A DNA stretch of 64,000 bases from Vulcanimicrobiota bacterium (lineage in GTDB: Bacteria; Vulcanimicrobiota; Vulcanimicrobiia; Vulcanimicrobiales; Vulcanimicrobiaceae). The stretch is taken from NCBI GenBank assembly GCA_963759245.1, contig CAVWYN010000003.1:896672-960671 (forward strand). The letters run 5' to 3'. Shown piece by piece: positions 1,624 to 58,830 of the stretch (positions within the stretch are counted from its first letter, which is position 1; each line of letters opens with the position of its first letter). The notes beneath the pieces were generated by a model, which saw nothing but the letters and a program-made list of their open reading frames with translations, was not told the DNA's origin and searched no databases. A program made the translations under genes and the position numbers.

Positions 1624-3183
1624 ATGAACGCGACTCCCGTCTTGATCGCCGGGGCGGGGCCGACCGGGCTAGTGCTCGCGCTGAGTCTCGCGCGGCGCGG
1701 CGTTTCGTTTCGGATCATCGACGAAGCCGACGGTCCGGGCGAACACTCGCGCGCCATGGTCGTGCAGGCGCGAACCTTGGAGTTCTACCAACAGTTCGGC
1801 TTTGCCGACGAGGTAATCGCCGAAGGGATCGTCGTGCCCCAGCTGCGCATGCGCGTAACCGATCGCGGCCAGCGCCCGCGCGAGGTTTTCTCACTAACGT
1901 TCCGGGATATCGGGGCCGGCATCAGCCCATACCCGTTCGCGCTGACGTATCCGCAGGACGATCACGAGAAATTCCTGGGAAAGAAGTTGGATGAGCTGGG
2001 CGTCCGTGTGGAGTGGAACACAAGGCTTGCGGCATTGTCGCCCTTCGACTCCGCTCAGGGTGACAATGCCGCTCAGGGTGACAATGCCGCCGTGACCGCG
2101 ACGATCGAGGGGCCGGGCGGCAGCGAGGAGATCGCGGCGCAGTATCTGTGCGGCTGCGACGGCGCGCATTCGGTCGTGCGCACGGCGCTCGGCGTCGGAT
2201 TTGCCGGCACGACGTACGACCAGCACTTCTTCGTGTGCGACGCGAAGATCGCAGGCGACTTCATCACCGACCTCATCTTCACGCTGGGCGAAGATACGTT
2301 GGTGCTGATACTGCCGGTCCGCTCGAGCGGCATGCATCGGCTGATAGGCCTGGTACCGGCGGGCATTTCAAACGGTGAAAGCGTGACGTTCGACGCGATC
2401 CGCGACCGAATCGAACCATTCTTGGGCATCAAGGTCAGCGAGGTCAACTGGTTTGCGACCTACCGCGTCCATCATCGCGTCGCCGAGAAATTCCGCGTCG
2501 GCCCGGTCTTTATTCTGGGCGATGCGGCGCACATTCATAGCCCCGTCGGCGGCCAAGGAATGAACACGGGCATTGGCGATGCGGTGAATTTGGGTTGGAA
2601 GTTAGCCGACGCCATCCGCGGCAGGACGGCGCGGGGCGTCCTCGATTCGTTCGAGGAAGAGCGCATCGGCTTCGCGCGAGCGCTGGTCGAAACGACCGAC
2701 CGCGCGTTCACGGCGATCATCGCACGCGGCGAGAGGGGAGAATTGACGCGTCGGATGATGTTGCCGCTAATCATGCGCTTCGCCACGCGCTTTGCGGCGG
2801 TGCGTCACGCGCTGTTCCGCGTCGTTTCGCAGACGAGAATCCGCTATCCACATTCGAGCTTGAGCGAAGGCAAGGCCGGCGCCGTGCTCGGCGGCGATCG
2901 TCTGCTGTGGGTTGCGAGCCTGCACAACTTCGCTCCGCTGTGTTCGCTGGATTGGCAGTTACACGCGTACGGGCAGGCTGGTACGAACGTCAGCGCGAGC
3001 TGCGCTCGACTTGGCGTTCCGGTTTATTCGTTTCCTTGGAACGAGGATGCGCGGCGCGCCGGCTTCCCGCGCGATGCGATGTACTTGGTCCGGCCGGATG
3101 GCTACGTGGGACTCGCGCTCGAAACCGACGATGCTACGCGGTTCGACGCGTACGCCGGACGAATCGGGCTGCGCGCCGCCTAG
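1624..3183 (+). CDS. FAD-dependent aromatic-ring monooxygenase (PheA/TfdB-like)
   Basis: N-terminal GAGPTGL dinucleotide-binding motif, plus CGCDGAHSVVR and GDAAHIHSPVGGQGMNTGIGDA FAD-site motifs. Carries an in-frame REP-derived insert (2034-2088). Confidence 0.85.
   Translation: MNATPVLIAGAGPTGLVLALSLARRGVSFRIIDEADGPGEHSRAMVVQARTLEFYQQFGFADEVIAEGIVVPQLRMRVTDRGQRPREVFSLTFRDIGAGISPYPFALTYPQDDHEKFLGKKLDELGVRVEWNTRLAALSPFDSAQGDNAAQGDNAAVTATIEGPGGSEEIAAQYLCGCDGAHSVVRTALGVGFAGTTYDQHFFVCDAKIAGDFITDLIFTLGEDTLVLILPVRSSGMHRLIGLVPAGISNGESVTFDAIRDRIEPFLGIKVSEVNWFATYRVHHRVAEKFRVGPVFILGDAAHIHSPVGGQGMNTGIGDAVNLGWKLADAIRGRTARGVLDSFEEERIGFARALVETTDRAFTAIIARGERGELTRRMMLPLIMRFATRFAAVRHALFRVVSQTRIRYPHSSLSEGKAGAVLGGDRLLWVASLHNFAPLCSLDWQLHAYGQAGTNVSASCARLGVPVYSFPWNEDARRAGFPRDAMYLVRPDGYVGLALETDDATRFDAYAGRIGLRAA
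2034..2088 (+). repeat. REP-like hairpin embedded in-frame in a CDS, with 18-bp tandem duplication of its 3' arm
   Basis: cattgtcgccc-TTCGACTCCGCTCA-gggtgacaatg forms an 11-bp stem with one G-U pair. gctcagggtgacaatgcc occurs twice in tandem (2053-2070, 2071-2088). Translates as PFDSAQGDNAAQGDNAA. Confidence 0.8.
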
Positions 3184-3698
3184 CCGGTTTCACGCGAGCG
3201 GCCCAACTCACGTGCGCGTTCGACCATCTCGCGCATGCGCGGATGTTCGCCCGGTATCGTCTTCACCCACGATTCAAAGCGCGGCACGGTCTCGCCCGTT
3301 CGAAACAAGAAGTACCACACGTTCATGTCGCCCATGAACGCGAAGCGCTTCTTGAAATCTTTTGCGAGCACGGCATAGGATTCGAACGATCGCAGGTAGT
3401 TCGCGAATCCGCCGAACTCACGGTCGGTTTCGAGCAACGCTCGGGCGTTATGAATGACGGCGCGAACTTTACGCCGGATCTTGAGGAGACCGGGGGTCGC
3501 GAGAACGCGTTCGACGTCGATATCGTCGTACGCCGCAACTTTGGCCGGATCGAAGTCTTCGAACGCTTTTCGGTAGGCGCCCGAGTGTTCAGCGATCTGG
3601 CTCCATCTGACGCCGGCTTGGAACACTGCCCGCGTCATCACTTCCAAGTAGTCCGCCAACGAGGCGGGCTGGATGACGTCGGGAATCGTGTCGGCCAT
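3180..3698 (-). CDS. DNA-3-methyladenine glycosylase I (Tag)-family protein
   Basis: The core FQAGVRWSQI...FEDFDPAKVAAYDDIDVERVL...IRRKVRAVIHNARALL aligns by eye with E. coli Tag. Start trimmed to M42 (MADTIPD) because the upstream ORF extension is a translated REP copy. Tag zinc-site residues not recognised. Confidence 0.6.
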   Translation of the reverse strand: MADTIPDVIQPASLADYLEVMTRAVFQAGVRWSQIAEHSGAYRKAFEDFDPAKVAAYDDIDVERVLATPGLLKIRRKVRAVIHNARALLETDREFGGFANYLRSFESYAVLAKDFKKRFAFMGDMNVWYFLFRTGETVPRFESWVKTIPGEHPRMREMVERARELGRSRETG

Positions 3699-3717
3699 CG
3701 AGTGTGGCGTATTCCCG

Positions 3718-3748
3718 TGTGGCCCTTCGACTCCGCTGAGGGTGGTAG
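3718..3748 (+). repeat. degenerate REP-like copy
   Basis: ggcccTTCGACTCCGCTGAgggtgg: the loop is conserved but the arms are only weakly complementary. Confidence 0.4.
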
Positions 3749-3892
3749 GGGGAAGGGCGGTGGAGGCAGGGACGGGCAAGGCGGAGGTCGCAGGAAGCGG
3801 CACAAATGCTGCTCTCGTCACGTGGTTGGATTCTCGGAAGTTTCAGTTGCGAAGTCCGCACGGTAGGCAGAGTCTAAGGAGTTTCGGGTTCC

Positions 3893-7537: not shown

Positions 7538-7715
7538 GGTCTCGATCGCGACGCGAATGCCAGATACGTCGATCCCTACACGAGATAGACGACGACGAGC
7601 GCGATCCACGGCAGCGCACGATTCCAGCGCGTCACTGGGTAGACGACAATAAAAACCGCCGAGAGTTTCGGTTGCTAAGTTTTCGGCGCTAACGTTTTGT
7701 CAGCCATGAAAGATG
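7538..7715 (-). pseudogene. degenerate duplicate of the eamA 5' end, its upstream hairpin and the 3' end of the small ORF
   Basis: Hand alignment to 6845-7023 gives about 14 substitutions and 3 single-base indels. The eamA ATG becomes GTG and the frame is broken. Confidence 0.7.
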
Positions 7716-7806
7716 TCACCCTTCGACTCGCTGCGCTCGCTCAGGGCGACACGGGCAGTTCGTCCTTCGACTCCGCTCGCTCACGCTCGCTCCGCTCAGG
7801 ATGACA
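7715..7806 (+). repeat. two-hairpin REP/BIME-like composite
   Basis: gtcaccc-TTCGACTCGCTGCGCTCGCTCA-gggcgac, a spacer, then cgtcc-TTCGACTCCGCTCGCTCACGCTCGCTCCGCTCA-ggatgac. Near-identical architecture at 56883-56968. Confidence 0.8.
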
Positions 7807-11158: not shown

Positions 11159-11276
11159 GTCATCCTTCGACTCCGCTCAGGATGACACTGCTCCGCTCGG
11201 GATGACACTGCTTCGCTCGGGACGACACTAGTGGTACAATGGGAATCGGTCATCCTTCGACTCCGCTCAGGATGAC
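11159..11276 (+). repeat. REP-like locus: two hairpins plus a 3x20-bp tandem arm repeat
   Basis: gtcatcc-TTCGACTCCGCTCA-ggatgac at 11159-11186 and 11249-11276. ctccgctcaggatgacactg / ctccgctcgggatgacactg / cttcgctcgggacgacacta lie in tandem at 11171-11230. Confidence 0.85.
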
Positions 11277-11299
11277 AATGAAAAAGGAGGGTTTGCCGA

Positions 11300-52857: not shown

Positions 52858-52935
52858 GCGCCCGTAGCTCAAACTGGATAGAGCAGGGGACTCCTAAGCC
52901 CAAGGTTGCCAGTTCGATTCTGGCCGGGCGCACCA
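52858..52935 (+). tRNA. tRNA-Arg (anticodon CCT)
   Basis: Hand-folded cloverleaf: acceptor GCGCCCG/CGGGCGC, D arm GCTC/GAGC, anticodon loop CTCCTAA, T arm GCCAG-TTCGATT-CTGGC, encoded CCA. The anticodon stem has only three central G-C pairs. Confidence 0.8.
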
Positions 52936-53035
52936 TGCTTCGACTCCGCTCAGCATGACAGTGGCAGCTCCGTCCTTCGTCCTGCCTGCGCTCAAGGATG
53001 GCAGGTGTTGCGCGCCTTCGCTAAAGGCGGCTGCT
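52934..53035 (+). repeat. REP-like hairpin cluster abutting tRNA-Arg
   Basis: CATGC-TTCGACTCCGCTCA-GCATG, whose 5' arm begins with the CA of the tRNA CCA end. Followed by related hairpins (ccgtcctt...aaggatgg; gcctt-cgcta-aaggc). Confidence 0.75.
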
Positions 53036-53372: not shown

Positions 53373-53448
53373 AGGGCGGTAGCTCAATTGGTAGAGTCCT
53401 GGTCTCCAAAACCAGTTGTTGCAGGTTCGAGTCCTGTCCGCCCTGCCA
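53373..53448 (+). tRNA. tRNA-Trp (anticodon CCA)
   Basis: Hand-folded 76-nt cloverleaf: acceptor AGGGCGG/CCGCCCT, anticodon arm CTGGT-CTCCAAA-ACCAG, T loop TTCGAGT, encoded CCA. Confidence 0.95.
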
Positions 53449-53474
53449 CCCTTCGACTCGGCTCAGGGTGACAA
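53447..53474 (+). repeat. REP-like hairpin abutting tRNA-Trp
   Basis: CACCC-TTCGACTCGGCTCA-GGGTG. The 5' arm begins with the CA of the tRNA CCA end. Confidence 0.8.
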
Positions 53475-53489
53475 TATGGAAGTGAATAT

Positions 53490-54460: not shown

Positions 54461-54545
54461 GTGTCATCCTTCGACTCCGCTCAGGATGACACACGCGCTT
54501 GTCCTTCGACTGCGGCGCTCCGCGCCTTCGCTCAGGATGACAAGC
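54461..54545 (+). repeat. two-hairpin REP/BIME-like composite between nusG and rplK
   Basis: gtgtcatcc-TTCGACTCCGCTCA-ggatgacac (9-bp stem), then cttgtcc-TTCGACTGCGGCGCTCCGCGCCTTCGCTCA-ggatgacaag. Confidence 0.85.
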
Positions 54546-56882: not shown

Positions 56883-56968
56883 GTCACCCTTCGACTCGCT
56901 ACGCTCGCTCAGGGCGACATCGCATGGGTCCTTCGACTCCGGCGCTGCGCGCCTCCGCTCAGGATGAC
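56883..56968 (+). repeat. two-hairpin REP/BIME-like composite overlapping a gene 3' end
   Basis: gtcaccc-TTCGACTCGCTACGCTCGCTCA-gggcgac, then gggtcc-TTCGACTCCGGCGCTGCGCGCCTCCGCTCA-ggatgac. The ggatgac arm encodes the final Ser-Ser-stop of 56959-58830. Confidence 0.85.
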
Positions 56969-58830
56969 ATTAGTTCGTGGATTTGAGCTTCGAGTTGGGT
57001 AATGCGGGCGTGCGCTTTGTCGGCGTCGATGTGGTCGTACGCCGCGCCGGCGTTGCGCGCGATCGCTTCGAGCAGGCTGCGCTCGTCGGCGGTCAGCGGA
57101 ACGCCGCTGCTGCGCGCGCCGTAGAGCACGAAGCCGAAGACGGAACCGCGCATGACCAACGGCACGACGAGCGACGGCGCTTTCGCGCCGCCGGGTAGAA
57201 TCGTTTCGGCGCGCGGGCGGCCGTCGAGGACGACCGGCGACAGCTGCGCGCGCAGCTCCACGATCAGCGGATCTTCCGGGTCGATCGTCTCGGCTTCGCG
57301 ATTGTTCCAGCCGCGAGCGGCGATCCGCTCGAACTCGCCGTTGGGCCCGCGAGCGAGAAACAGAGCGGCCGACGTCAGGCCGAGCACCCGAACGGGTTCC
57401 TCGACGAGAAACTCGATTAGCGTTTTCTCCGACGACGTATTCGCAAGCGCACGCGCTGCGGCGCGGAGCGCCTCTTCGGCTCGGCGCTGGTCACGGAAGA
57501 GGAACGTGTTCAAGAAATCTTCGACGCGTCCGTGGAGCGCGTTGAGGGAGAAGCCGATGAACAAGGCTGCGAAGAGGCTGAGGTAGATCGCTGGTCGCGT
57601 GCTCTCAAAGACTTGTTCGGCCCACCACTCGAGAATGCCGAAGAACAGCAACAGCACGGCCGTGATTGTCCCGTAGACCGCGGCGCGTCCGATGACGAAA
57701 CGAAAGTCGATGACGCGTTCGGAAAGAAATCCGTATACGACGAAGATCGAGCCGACGAGCCCGAACCAGGGGCCGAGTGCGTCGGTCCAATGCTGGACGT
57801 TGAGCAGCGTGACCGAGGTGTTGCCGAACAGGTTGCTGAGCGAGTTGGTGAGGGCCCACGTGAGGTCGAGGATCGGCGCGAGCGCGATGCCGGCGATCAC
57901 CCAGGTGACGCGGGCGCGGTCGATCAGCGTTGCGCCCGAAGCGATGTACGCCAGGCCGCCGAGCACGACGATGAGCAGCAGCGAATCGGTCAGGCTCATG
58001 AAGAGGTAGGCCGGTCCCGGGAAGCCGTAGCGCTGAAAGACCGTCCAGACGATCGGATCGAGCCACACGACGAAGTCGATCAGCGAGAGGAAGATCGCGG
58101 CGCCGAAGAACCACGGCCACGCTCGGCTCGGTCGTCCGTAAAGGCGTTGCGCAAAGATCAAGATCATAAGCTGTGCTAGGGGATAGACGACTTGCATGAA
58201 CAGATCGACGTCGAAGTTGATCGGCCAGGTCGCCAAATCGAGCGCGGTCTTGTTGACCTTGATCAGCATCAGCATCGTGTAGATATAGAATGCCAGCGTG
58301 ATCGGCCGCGGCCGCACCAAGAATAGCGCGCTGGCGAGCGCCAGGGAGAGAAAGAAGGCGAGCGGAACGCCGACGTCGCGCGTGAGCACGGCCCGAGGCG
58401 AGCGATCGATGGCGCCGGCGGTGAGCCGCACCGGGAACGTGCGGTTGTCGCGCGTGACCTGGACGACGAGGTGGGATTCCGATGGTGCGCCGCCGATGAG
58501 CGAGAAACGCTGCGCGGGCGTAAGGATTCCCAGGTTGATCCGGTCGCCCGTTTGCAGGCCGGAGGTCCTCGACGTTCCCGGCTCGACCTGGATGACGTCG
58601 GAGTTGCGTTGGAAGACGAATGCGTAGTAACCGATGTGCGTCGCGTTGTTTTCCACAATGACGAAGACCAGCACCATGAAGACGGTGCCGATCGCCACCA
58701 CGGCCAGCGAGAGGCGCTCGCAGACGAACGAGACGAGGGACTTCACTAGTCCGCTACGAGAACGTGACGAGTCCCGTACGAACGCTGTAGATTCCACCGA
58801 TAACCTGCGCGTCGCCACGAGCGACTGCAT
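56959..58830 (-). CDS. membrane sensor-like protein: PDZ-like + polytopic TM + C-terminal GAF-like domain (paralog of 34908-36950)
   Basis: PDZ-like SGLQTGDRINLG, about 9 TM helices and a GAF-like C-terminus. The start may be the GTG at 58746 rather than 58830, which overlaps the upstream gene by 77 nt. Confidence 0.6.
   Translation of the reverse strand: MQSLVATRRLSVESTAFVRDSSRSRSGLVKSLVSFVCERLSLAVVAIGTVFMVLVFVIVENNATHIGYYAFVFQRNSDVIQVEPGTSRTSGLQTGDRINLGILTPAQRFSLIGGAPSESHLVVQVTRDNRTFPVRLTAGAIDRSPRAVLTRDVGVPLAFFLSLALASALFLVRPRPITLAFYIYTMLMLIKVNKTALDLATWPINFDVDLFMQVVYPLAQLMILIFAQRLYGRPSRAWPWFFGAAIFLSLIDFVVWLDPIVWTVFQRYGFPGPAYLFMSLTDSLLLIVVLGGLAYIASGATLIDRARVTWVIAGIALAPILDLTWALTNSLSNLFGNTSVTLLNVQHWTDALGPWFGLVGSIFVVYGFLSERVIDFRFVIGRAAVYGTITAVLLLFFGILEWWAEQVFESTRPAIYLSLFAALFIGFSLNALHGRVEDFLNTFLFRDQRRAEEALRAAARALANTSSEKTLIEFLVEEPVRVLGLTSAALFLARGPNGEFERIAARGWNNREAETIDPEDPLIVELRAQLSPVVLDGRPRAETILPGGAKAPSLVVPLVMRGSVFGFVLYGARSSGVPLTADERSLLEAIARNAGAAYDHIDADKAHARITQLEAQIHELMSS

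Follow-up and report, generated by a model that had tools for sequence, protein, structure and literature searches.

Palindromic repeats in genes and the Cybelea family

Short palindromic elements that lie in frame inside many unrelated housekeeping genes have been described in Rickettsia (Rickettsia palindromic elements, RPEs; Ogata et al., 2000, 2002; Claverie & Ogata, 2003, cited in PMC3733652 and reviewed in PMC10969869). A second class of small hairpin repeats consists of the NTS and other Ssn-related motifs (Chenal et al., 2025; PMC11893778), in which the Ssn proteins are site-specific ssDNA nucleases of the GIY-YIG type, the genes are arranged in an NTS-ssnA-NTS architecture and 2% of the NTS copies of N. 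meningitidis are located inside genes. The GTAG- and CGTC-tagged REPs (Di Nocera et al., 2013; PMC3733652) are short stem-loops that are mostly extragenic, although REPs of several species are on record as lying inside genes (PMC3733652; PMC10969869). Our literature search found no account of palindromic repeats from Eremiobacterota.

Candidatus Cybelea, in which the names on the homologues of the monooxygenase place the genome studied here, is a lineage of uncultured free-living soil bacteria of the Eremiobacterota (Baltobacterales). The stretch of DNA analysed here (64 000 nucleotides, C3:896672-960671; referred to as the window) belongs to a genome of 3.03 Mb that is 96.5% complete. It contains an FAD monooxygenase gene that carries a hairpin repeat within its reading frame, and we file this case with the protein-coding palindromic repeat insertions, a type that is already known.

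The core of the repeat, CCTTCGACTCCGCTCAGG, is matched eight times in the window, compared with 0.12 matches expected, and 97 times genome-wide when up to two mismatches are allowed. A profile search of the genome with nhmmer returned 83 copies at E <= 1e-3 (the strong copies) and 195 at E <= 0.1. The consensus derived for the family, YGTC(R)YCCT - TCGACTCCGCTC - AGGRTGAC(R), is written out as nnnGTC(R)YCCTTCGACTCCGCTCAGGRTGACnn. The stem varies from 4 to 20 bp across family copies, and the 15 copies with stems of at least 11 bp have 13 distinct outer stems that are nevertheless still complementary. Additional 3'-arm motifs are found within 80 nt downstream of 26 of 80 copies, compared with additional 5' arms upstream of 11 of 80, which indicates that the family as a whole, rather than one gene, tends to amplify its 3' arm in tandem. 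According to a rough gene finder that was trained on the codon usage of the genome, about 65 of the 83 strong copies are extragenic, although called ORFs make up about 81% of the genome. The element is thus a short imperfect palindrome present in many copies and mainly outside genes, as are REPs and REPINs.

Several further copies are located in the window (7715-7806, 11159-11282, 52934-52960, 53447-53475, 54461-54542 and 56883-56969); they include a 20-nt triplication of the 3' arm (11171-11230) and copies that immediately follow two tRNA genes.

The core (with at most one mismatch) was detected in 23 of the 25 same-genus genomes, at 0-85 copies each, and in none of the 16 searched that lie outside the genus. 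Rfam contains no family that matches the hairpin at gathering thresholds, and gave only chance miRNA-level matches at E values of up to 10. A looser motif, CCTTCGAC-N2-3-GCTCAGG, with the recurrent flanks GGGCGAACGG, GGGTGACA and GGACAGGCT, was found in many phyla among the matches listed in a GTDB-wide scan (loci L100-L179), including Proteobacteria, Chloroflexota, Bacteroidota, Cyanobacteria, Acidobacteriota, CPR and others. This distribution points to a possible pan-bacterial super-family of such hairpins, and the Cybelea repeats would appear to be one local branch of it.

The orientation of the repeats along the whole of contig C3 is strongly biased, with a 35:1 excess of the '+' orientation at 0.3-1.2 Mb and mostly '-' copies beyond 1.5 Mb. 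Cumulative GC skew has its extremes at 1.17 and 2.81 Mb, and the switch in orientation is close to the first of these. When copies are compared with the adjacent gene, 17 point the same way and 19 the opposite way. Orientation tracks the replication arm and not the neighbouring gene, which is a clue to an ssDNA-based mechanism. A role as 3'-end or terminator elements is not supported by this 17:19 ratio or by the location of only about 29 of the 83 strong copies within 150 nt of the 3' end of a gene.

The element had initially been labelled as REP-type. This label holds in so far as the element is a multicopy, mostly extragenic palindrome, but not with regard to the mobilizing machinery. No match to the RAYT family of Y1 HUH transposases (PF01797) was found in the 96.5%-complete genome, while the same search detected positive controls in six of 14 genomes, and the GTAG tetranucleotide is absent from the element end, which has the consensus YGTC. 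A classical RAYT-mobilized REP is ruled out by these two results. The CGTC class, which is without a dedicated transposase (PMC3733652), is closer in that many Cybelea copies begin with CGTC or TGTC; the outer stems of the Cybelea repeats differ from copy to copy yet remain complementary, which sets them apart from the tagged REPs. In place of a RAYT, the repeats are associated with GIY-YIG genes. Besides uvrC, the genome contains three small GIY-YIG ORFs, none of which gave a match in NCBIfam; the Pfam GIY-YIG scores of the nucleases are 58-60 bits. Two of the ORFs, both outside the window, have repeat arrays on both sides:

C3:603040-603354, - strand: single-domain GIY-YIG gene, ~100 aa
C3:2435374-2435667, + strand: single-domain GIY-YIG gene, ~100 aa

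These two proteins share 67% sequence identity, and seven and 11 repeat profile hits, respectively, are located within 3 kb of their genes, compared with about 0.6 expected. A third copy (C3:391598-391801) is degenerate, with an internal stop, and adjoins a variant of the repeat. Close homologues of the nuclease (E < 1e-30) were detected in 19 of 24 genomes of the genus and nowhere else, and the repeat core is likewise restricted to the genus. The correlation between repeat and nuclease within the genus is imperfect: genome G012 has 78 copies and a weak nuclease match, while G001 and G021 have the gene and no core copies.

This arrangement resembles the NTS/Ssn system in several respects. In both, an oriented hairpin repeat of 20-50 nt, which on one strand starts with YGTCAY, numbers tens to hundreds of copies and forms arrays on both sides of small single-domain GIY-YIG genes, and in neither is there a transposase. 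The Cybelea repeats differ in having a conserved 12-nt loop, unlike the NTS, in which a short loop closes a GC-rich stem, and in that about 14% of the strong copies are in frame inside genes, which is well above the value for N. meningitidis. Furthermore, the published SRM pattern, HGTCWYN(0-2)YYVSBRHN(0-5)WNVSBRGN(0-2)RNCYNB, overlaps none of 82 strong copies and has 13 matches genome-wide compared with 26-36 in shuffled sequences; the negative NCBIfam result and the imperfect correlation of repeat and nuclease likewise speak against the link. The link to an Ssn-type nuclease, for which the shared architecture argues, is plausible but unproven.

The monooxygenase gene and its hairpin

The features of the locus are as follows (window coordinates):

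1624-3183, + strand: host gene, encoding a group A flavin-dependent aromatic hydroxylase of 519 aa (PF01494) whose C-terminal domain is thioredoxin-like
2029-2044, + strand: 5' arm of the hairpin, GCGGCATTGTCGCCCT; the codons of its outer part, GCG GCA TTG TCG (A A L S), are probably native to the gene
2045-2056, + strand: hairpin loop of 12 nt, TCGACTCCGCTC, conserved across the repeat family (from the sequence and the family searches)
2057-2072, + strand: 3' arm of the hairpin, AGGGTGACAATGCCGC (from the sequence and the RNA fold)
2053-2088, + strand: exact 18-nt tandem duplication, two copies of GCTCAGGGTGACAATGCC, encoding AQGDNA AQGDNA (from TRF and the allele alignment)
2041-2076 (approximate), + strand: net insertion relative to orthologues, residues ~140-151 (PFDSAQGDNAAQ), 11-12 aa or 33-36 nt

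The 519-aa protein matches PF01494 (FAD_binding_3) with an E value of 5.6e-70 in Pfam. The GxGxxG (residues 10-15), DG (residues 179-180) and GD (residues 299-300) motifs are intact and correspond to invariant columns in alignments of 13 and of 118 sequences. The closest solved structures are those of rifampicin monooxygenase, PgaE, OxyS, phenol hydroxylase and 3-hydroxybenzoate hydroxylase, and Foldseek comparisons with PieE, MtmOIV, OxyS, phenol hydroxylase and PgaE gave TM scores of 0.72-0.83. The protein thus combines the PF01494 domain, the three flavin motifs and the PHBH-type fold of the group A flavin-dependent monooxygenases.

The hairpin (2029-2072) consists of 16 pairs, one of which is G.T, and is longer than the 11-bp stem assigned to it in the preliminary description. 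The other elements of that description, namely an in-frame read-through, a strong hairpin on the coding mRNA and an 18-bp duplication of the 3' arm, are borne out. The ORF is free of stops through the hairpin, with the translation around the site reading ...LAALSPFDSAQGDNAAQGDNAAVTATI... / ...RLAALSPFDSAQGDNAAQGDNAAVTATIEGP... The RNA fold of 2020-2100 has a predicted free energy of -41.2 kcal/mol (z = -4.1), and none of 200 shuffled sequences was as stable. TRF detects a period of exactly 18 nt with 2.2 copies (2051-2090, 100% matches), in which the two units are 2053-2070 and 2071-2088.

An AlphaFold2 model of the monooxygenase, built from 118 sequences, has a mean pLDDT of 91.1 and a pTM of 0.92. 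The sole weak stretch comprises residues 141-160, with means of 57 and 74 for its two 10-residue blocks. In the model, this stretch is predicted to connect strands 134-138 and 157-163, immediately before the strand that enters the GCDGAHS (DG) motif, and the HMMER alignment to 5kow opens gaps opposite the insert. The site is presumably the β-turn of a meander on the outer face of the FAD-binding domain, as in the PHBH fold. The proposal of a surface-loop insertion between conserved FAD-binding blocks is therefore consistent with the model, in which the insert would form a low-confidence turn away from the FAD motifs.

Orthologues, alleles and alternative readings

Nine orthologues from the same genus (61-69% sequence identity) are without the 11-12 residues at exactly the position of the insert, as are the homologues from Bryobacteraceae and Solibacter. 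In the alignment of 118 sequences, the segment that corresponds to residues 133-166 of the window protein has 21-23 residues in 113 of the 118 homologues, compared with 34 in the window protein. This is the result of the orthologue comparison proposed in the preliminary description, and it identifies the residues as extra in the window protein. The insert-free state is found both in genomes that contain the repeat family (G018 and G022, 28-34 core copies) and in genomes without it (G001 and G021), and is thus independent of the absence of the family; in particular, the finding that had been named as one that would count against an insertion, namely the same residues in orthologues from family-free genomes, is not borne out.

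The boundaries of the insert are ambiguous. Native-like codons are present at the site in some orthologues, namely TTG TCG CAG in L005 and L007 and GGC GAC a few codons further on in L003 and L009, and the ancestral site may already have resembled TGTCG...CAGGGTGAC. Since the arms may be partly native, the minimal inserted material could be only 15 nt (CCCTTCGACTCCGCT) and the 18-nt duplication, 11 residues in total. Alternatively, a larger insert could have been accompanied by the loss of native codons. The resemblance of the site to the arms, if real, hints at microhomology-guided integration, which is a speculation.

One further orthologue (P0019; 65% identity), which is not a sister of the window clade, carries a copy of another subfamily, TCCTTCGATAGCGGCGCTTCGAGCCGCGCTCAGGATGACAAG, at the identical position. 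Judged from these sequences, the monooxygenase site is one that was struck twice independently, in two lineages.

This independent insert from a different repeat subfamily reads TSF-DSGASSRAQDDK-GSV in the orthologous gene of another Cybelea species (L280:1501-3135; GCA_963752625.1, contig CAVVYX010000004.1; 65% identity).

Four contigs (L021-L024) from four different JGI metagenome samples encode proteins that are 95-98% identical to the window protein, and all of them carry the hairpin. They differ from the window allele, which has two 18-nt units, in the make-up of the repeat: a 12-nt unit accompanies a single 18-nt unit in L021 (-6 nt) and the 18-nt pair in L023 and L024 (+12 nt), and L022 has an additional nested 5' arm (+15 nt). 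The reading frame is kept in every one of these alleles. Direct copies of GGTGACAAT, between which segments were deleted or duplicated, can explain all of the differences, and slipped-strand events would be the simplest source of the length variants. The pairwise dN/dS values among the four full-length insert-bearing alleles are 0.18-0.24, at dS values of 0.085-0.14, and since the insert is common to all four alleles, purifying selection acted after the insertion.

These comparisons confirm what the preliminary description observed and support its interpretation: the insert is real, lineage-specific, tolerated and polymorphic, and we infer that it is neutral or nearly neutral for the enzyme. 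In our judgement it is very probable that a genus-specific hairpin repeat was inserted into a turn of the monooxygenase, was tolerated there and was diversified by slippage, with the gene under purifying selection.

Four other readings were weighed against this account. The first is that the insert has been co-opted, either with the mRNA hairpin tuning translation or stability or with the variable loop altering oligomerization or partner binding, such that the length polymorphism itself is selected. The strength of the predicted hairpin, the hypervariable but always in-frame length and the occurrence of inserts at the same site in two lineages would all be expected from co-option. We nonetheless regard it as improbable. 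The sister alleles have a mismatch in the outer stem (GGCAATGTC versus GACAATGCC), and the long stem is therefore not conserved; most orthologues are without the insert; and recurrence at one site is also predicted by a filter for permissive loops. The second reading, that the insert inactivates the enzyme and that the gene is a decaying pseudogene which is still open, would be in keeping with a doubling of the length of a β-turn in the FAD-binding domain. It is harder to reconcile with the low dN/dS values at a dS of about 0.1, with the lack of stops and frameshifts over ~1560 nt in four alleles, with the integrity of every flavin motif and with the toleration of the same element by the essential genes pheT, leuB and asd (see below), and we consider it very improbable.

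The third reading is that of a native, lineage-specific expansion of the loop by local duplication, in which the likeness to the repeat family is coincidental or the result of later conversion. The orthologues with TTG TCG CAG and GGC GAC would indeed have been arm-like before any insertion, and the length of the loop differs by one residue among homologues. However, the site has an 18/18 match to the core together with the complete 12-nt loop in a 3-Mb genome (nhmmer E = 1e-8), the peptide SPFDSAQGD recurs as a clean insert in pheT, the purP-like gene, hydantoinase and others, and the insert in P0019 is an independent event of a different subfamily at the same site; native expansion is largely refuted already and retains only the slightest likelihood. 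Finally, assembly errors are frequent at hairpins and short tandem repeats and the exact window protein is absent from the protein collection, but an assembly or polishing artefact as the source of the insert or of its 18-bp duplication is scarcely credible given four independent contigs with differing repeat make-up that are all in frame, two of which (L023 and L024) share the 18-nt pair and the additional 12-nt unit.

In-frame copies in other genes and the proposed origin

The copy in the monooxygenase is not a singular event, as the genome contains about a dozen in-frame genic copies. Twelve of the strong copies are located within ORFs that have coding signal on both sides (11 genes, including pheT, leuB, asd and a purP-like gene). 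Five genic cases were compared with about 24 relatives per gene:

pheT: clean insertion of 7 aa, EPFDSAQ
leuB: insertion of 6 aa, PVLSGVEEP, from a copy in reverse orientation
purP-like gene: insertion of 9-10 aa, VSPFDSAQGD
asd: in-frame insert, SFDSAQDDK
hydantoinase: two inverted copies in a linker

As in the RPEs, an in-frame insertion is accompanied by insert-free orthologues in the monooxygenase, pheT, leuB, asd and the purP-like gene. As described in the papers that cite and review the Rickettsia work, the RPEs are likewise repeated palindromes in frame, with orthologues that are without them and positions judged to be compatible with the fold. The two systems differ in size: in the same accounts, RPEs are ~100-150 bp in length and encode a conserved peptide of ~30-50 aa, whereas the element of Cybelea is 20-58 nt (7-19 aa), and the genic inserts, at 18-58 nt, are too short for such a peptide domain. 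As far as those accounts describe the RPEs, the Cybelea element is also distinguished by its host, a free-living soil lineage of Eremiobacterota, by its strain-level polymorphism in repeat number and by its association with GIY-YIG genes. Two of the six frames of the element contain stops; of the four that are open, three occur in the genic copies (PFDSAQG, LSGVEG and PSTPLR).

In the asd loop (L076-L092) and the hydantoinase linker (L246-L259), element-derived peptides are present in several other Cybelea species (e.g. LRQAQDD, PERSRG and SFDCAQDKL...). The frames and orientations differ, which suggests independent strikes in the same permissive loops; these loops could be either recurrent insertion hot spots or simply permissive.

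The origin that we propose for the monooxygenase insert would begin with the entry of a short, genus-specific hairpin repeat into the codons of the turn between two β-strands of the FAD-binding domain. The insert would have survived for two reasons: it entered in one of the four stop-free frames, which reads S-P-F-D-S-A-Q-G-D, and this polar peptide rich in Pro, Gly and Asp would be accommodated in a solvent-exposed turn away from the GxGxxG, DG and GD motifs. Slipped-strand events between direct copies of the 3' arm (18- and 12-nt units) would then have produced the in-frame length variants, while the enzyme remained under purifying selection. The small GIY-YIG (Ssn-like) proteins encoded between repeat arrays are putative single-strand nucleases that may spread or maintain the repeats on ssDNA exposed during replication.

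Colonization of genes in frame by tiny palindromes, which is best known from Rickettsia, thus extends to a free-living, uncultured soil phylum, and the repeats appear to belong to the recently described Ssn-partnered class, which is reported to be rare inside genes. For annotation, the family accounts for the recurrent peptides PFDSAQGD, VTLSGVEG and LRQAQDD in predicted proteins. The natural allelic series in one loop (-6, 0, +12 and +15 nt), together with the clean inserts in pheT, leuB and asd, provides material for tests of loop tolerance, and could also be used to ask whether Ssn-type nucleases spread their motifs. A broader proposal, that the Ssn-like hairpin repeats of Cybelea are a targeted source of new protein loops, which would arise through ssDNA intermediates and microhomology to the arms and be diversified by slippage, is put forward tentatively and is on balance unlikely. 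If true, it would explain the repeated independent strikes at the same codon positions (the monooxygenase in two lineages, and asd and hydantoinase in several) and the in-frame polymorphism of loop length in housekeeping enzymes.

Six strong copies provide the final codons or the stop of an ORF, and the remainder are extragenic. At C3:211967, 1529877, 1691015, 1931095, 2238320 and 2332097, the repeat is located within the last 15 codons of well scoring ORFs, which indicates that the C-terminus and the stop codon of these six ORFs are element-derived.

In the window, upstream of the - strand gene that ends at 3180, a degenerate copy, CCTTCGACTCCGCTGAGG (3724-3741), is located in the 5' extension of the ORF at 3180-3821 (- strand). 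This ORF is a DNA-3-methyladenine glycosylase gene that is called with 172 aa in the sister contigs, and the start of the glycosylase is therefore probably the internal MADTIPDV, which would place the repeat in the leader.
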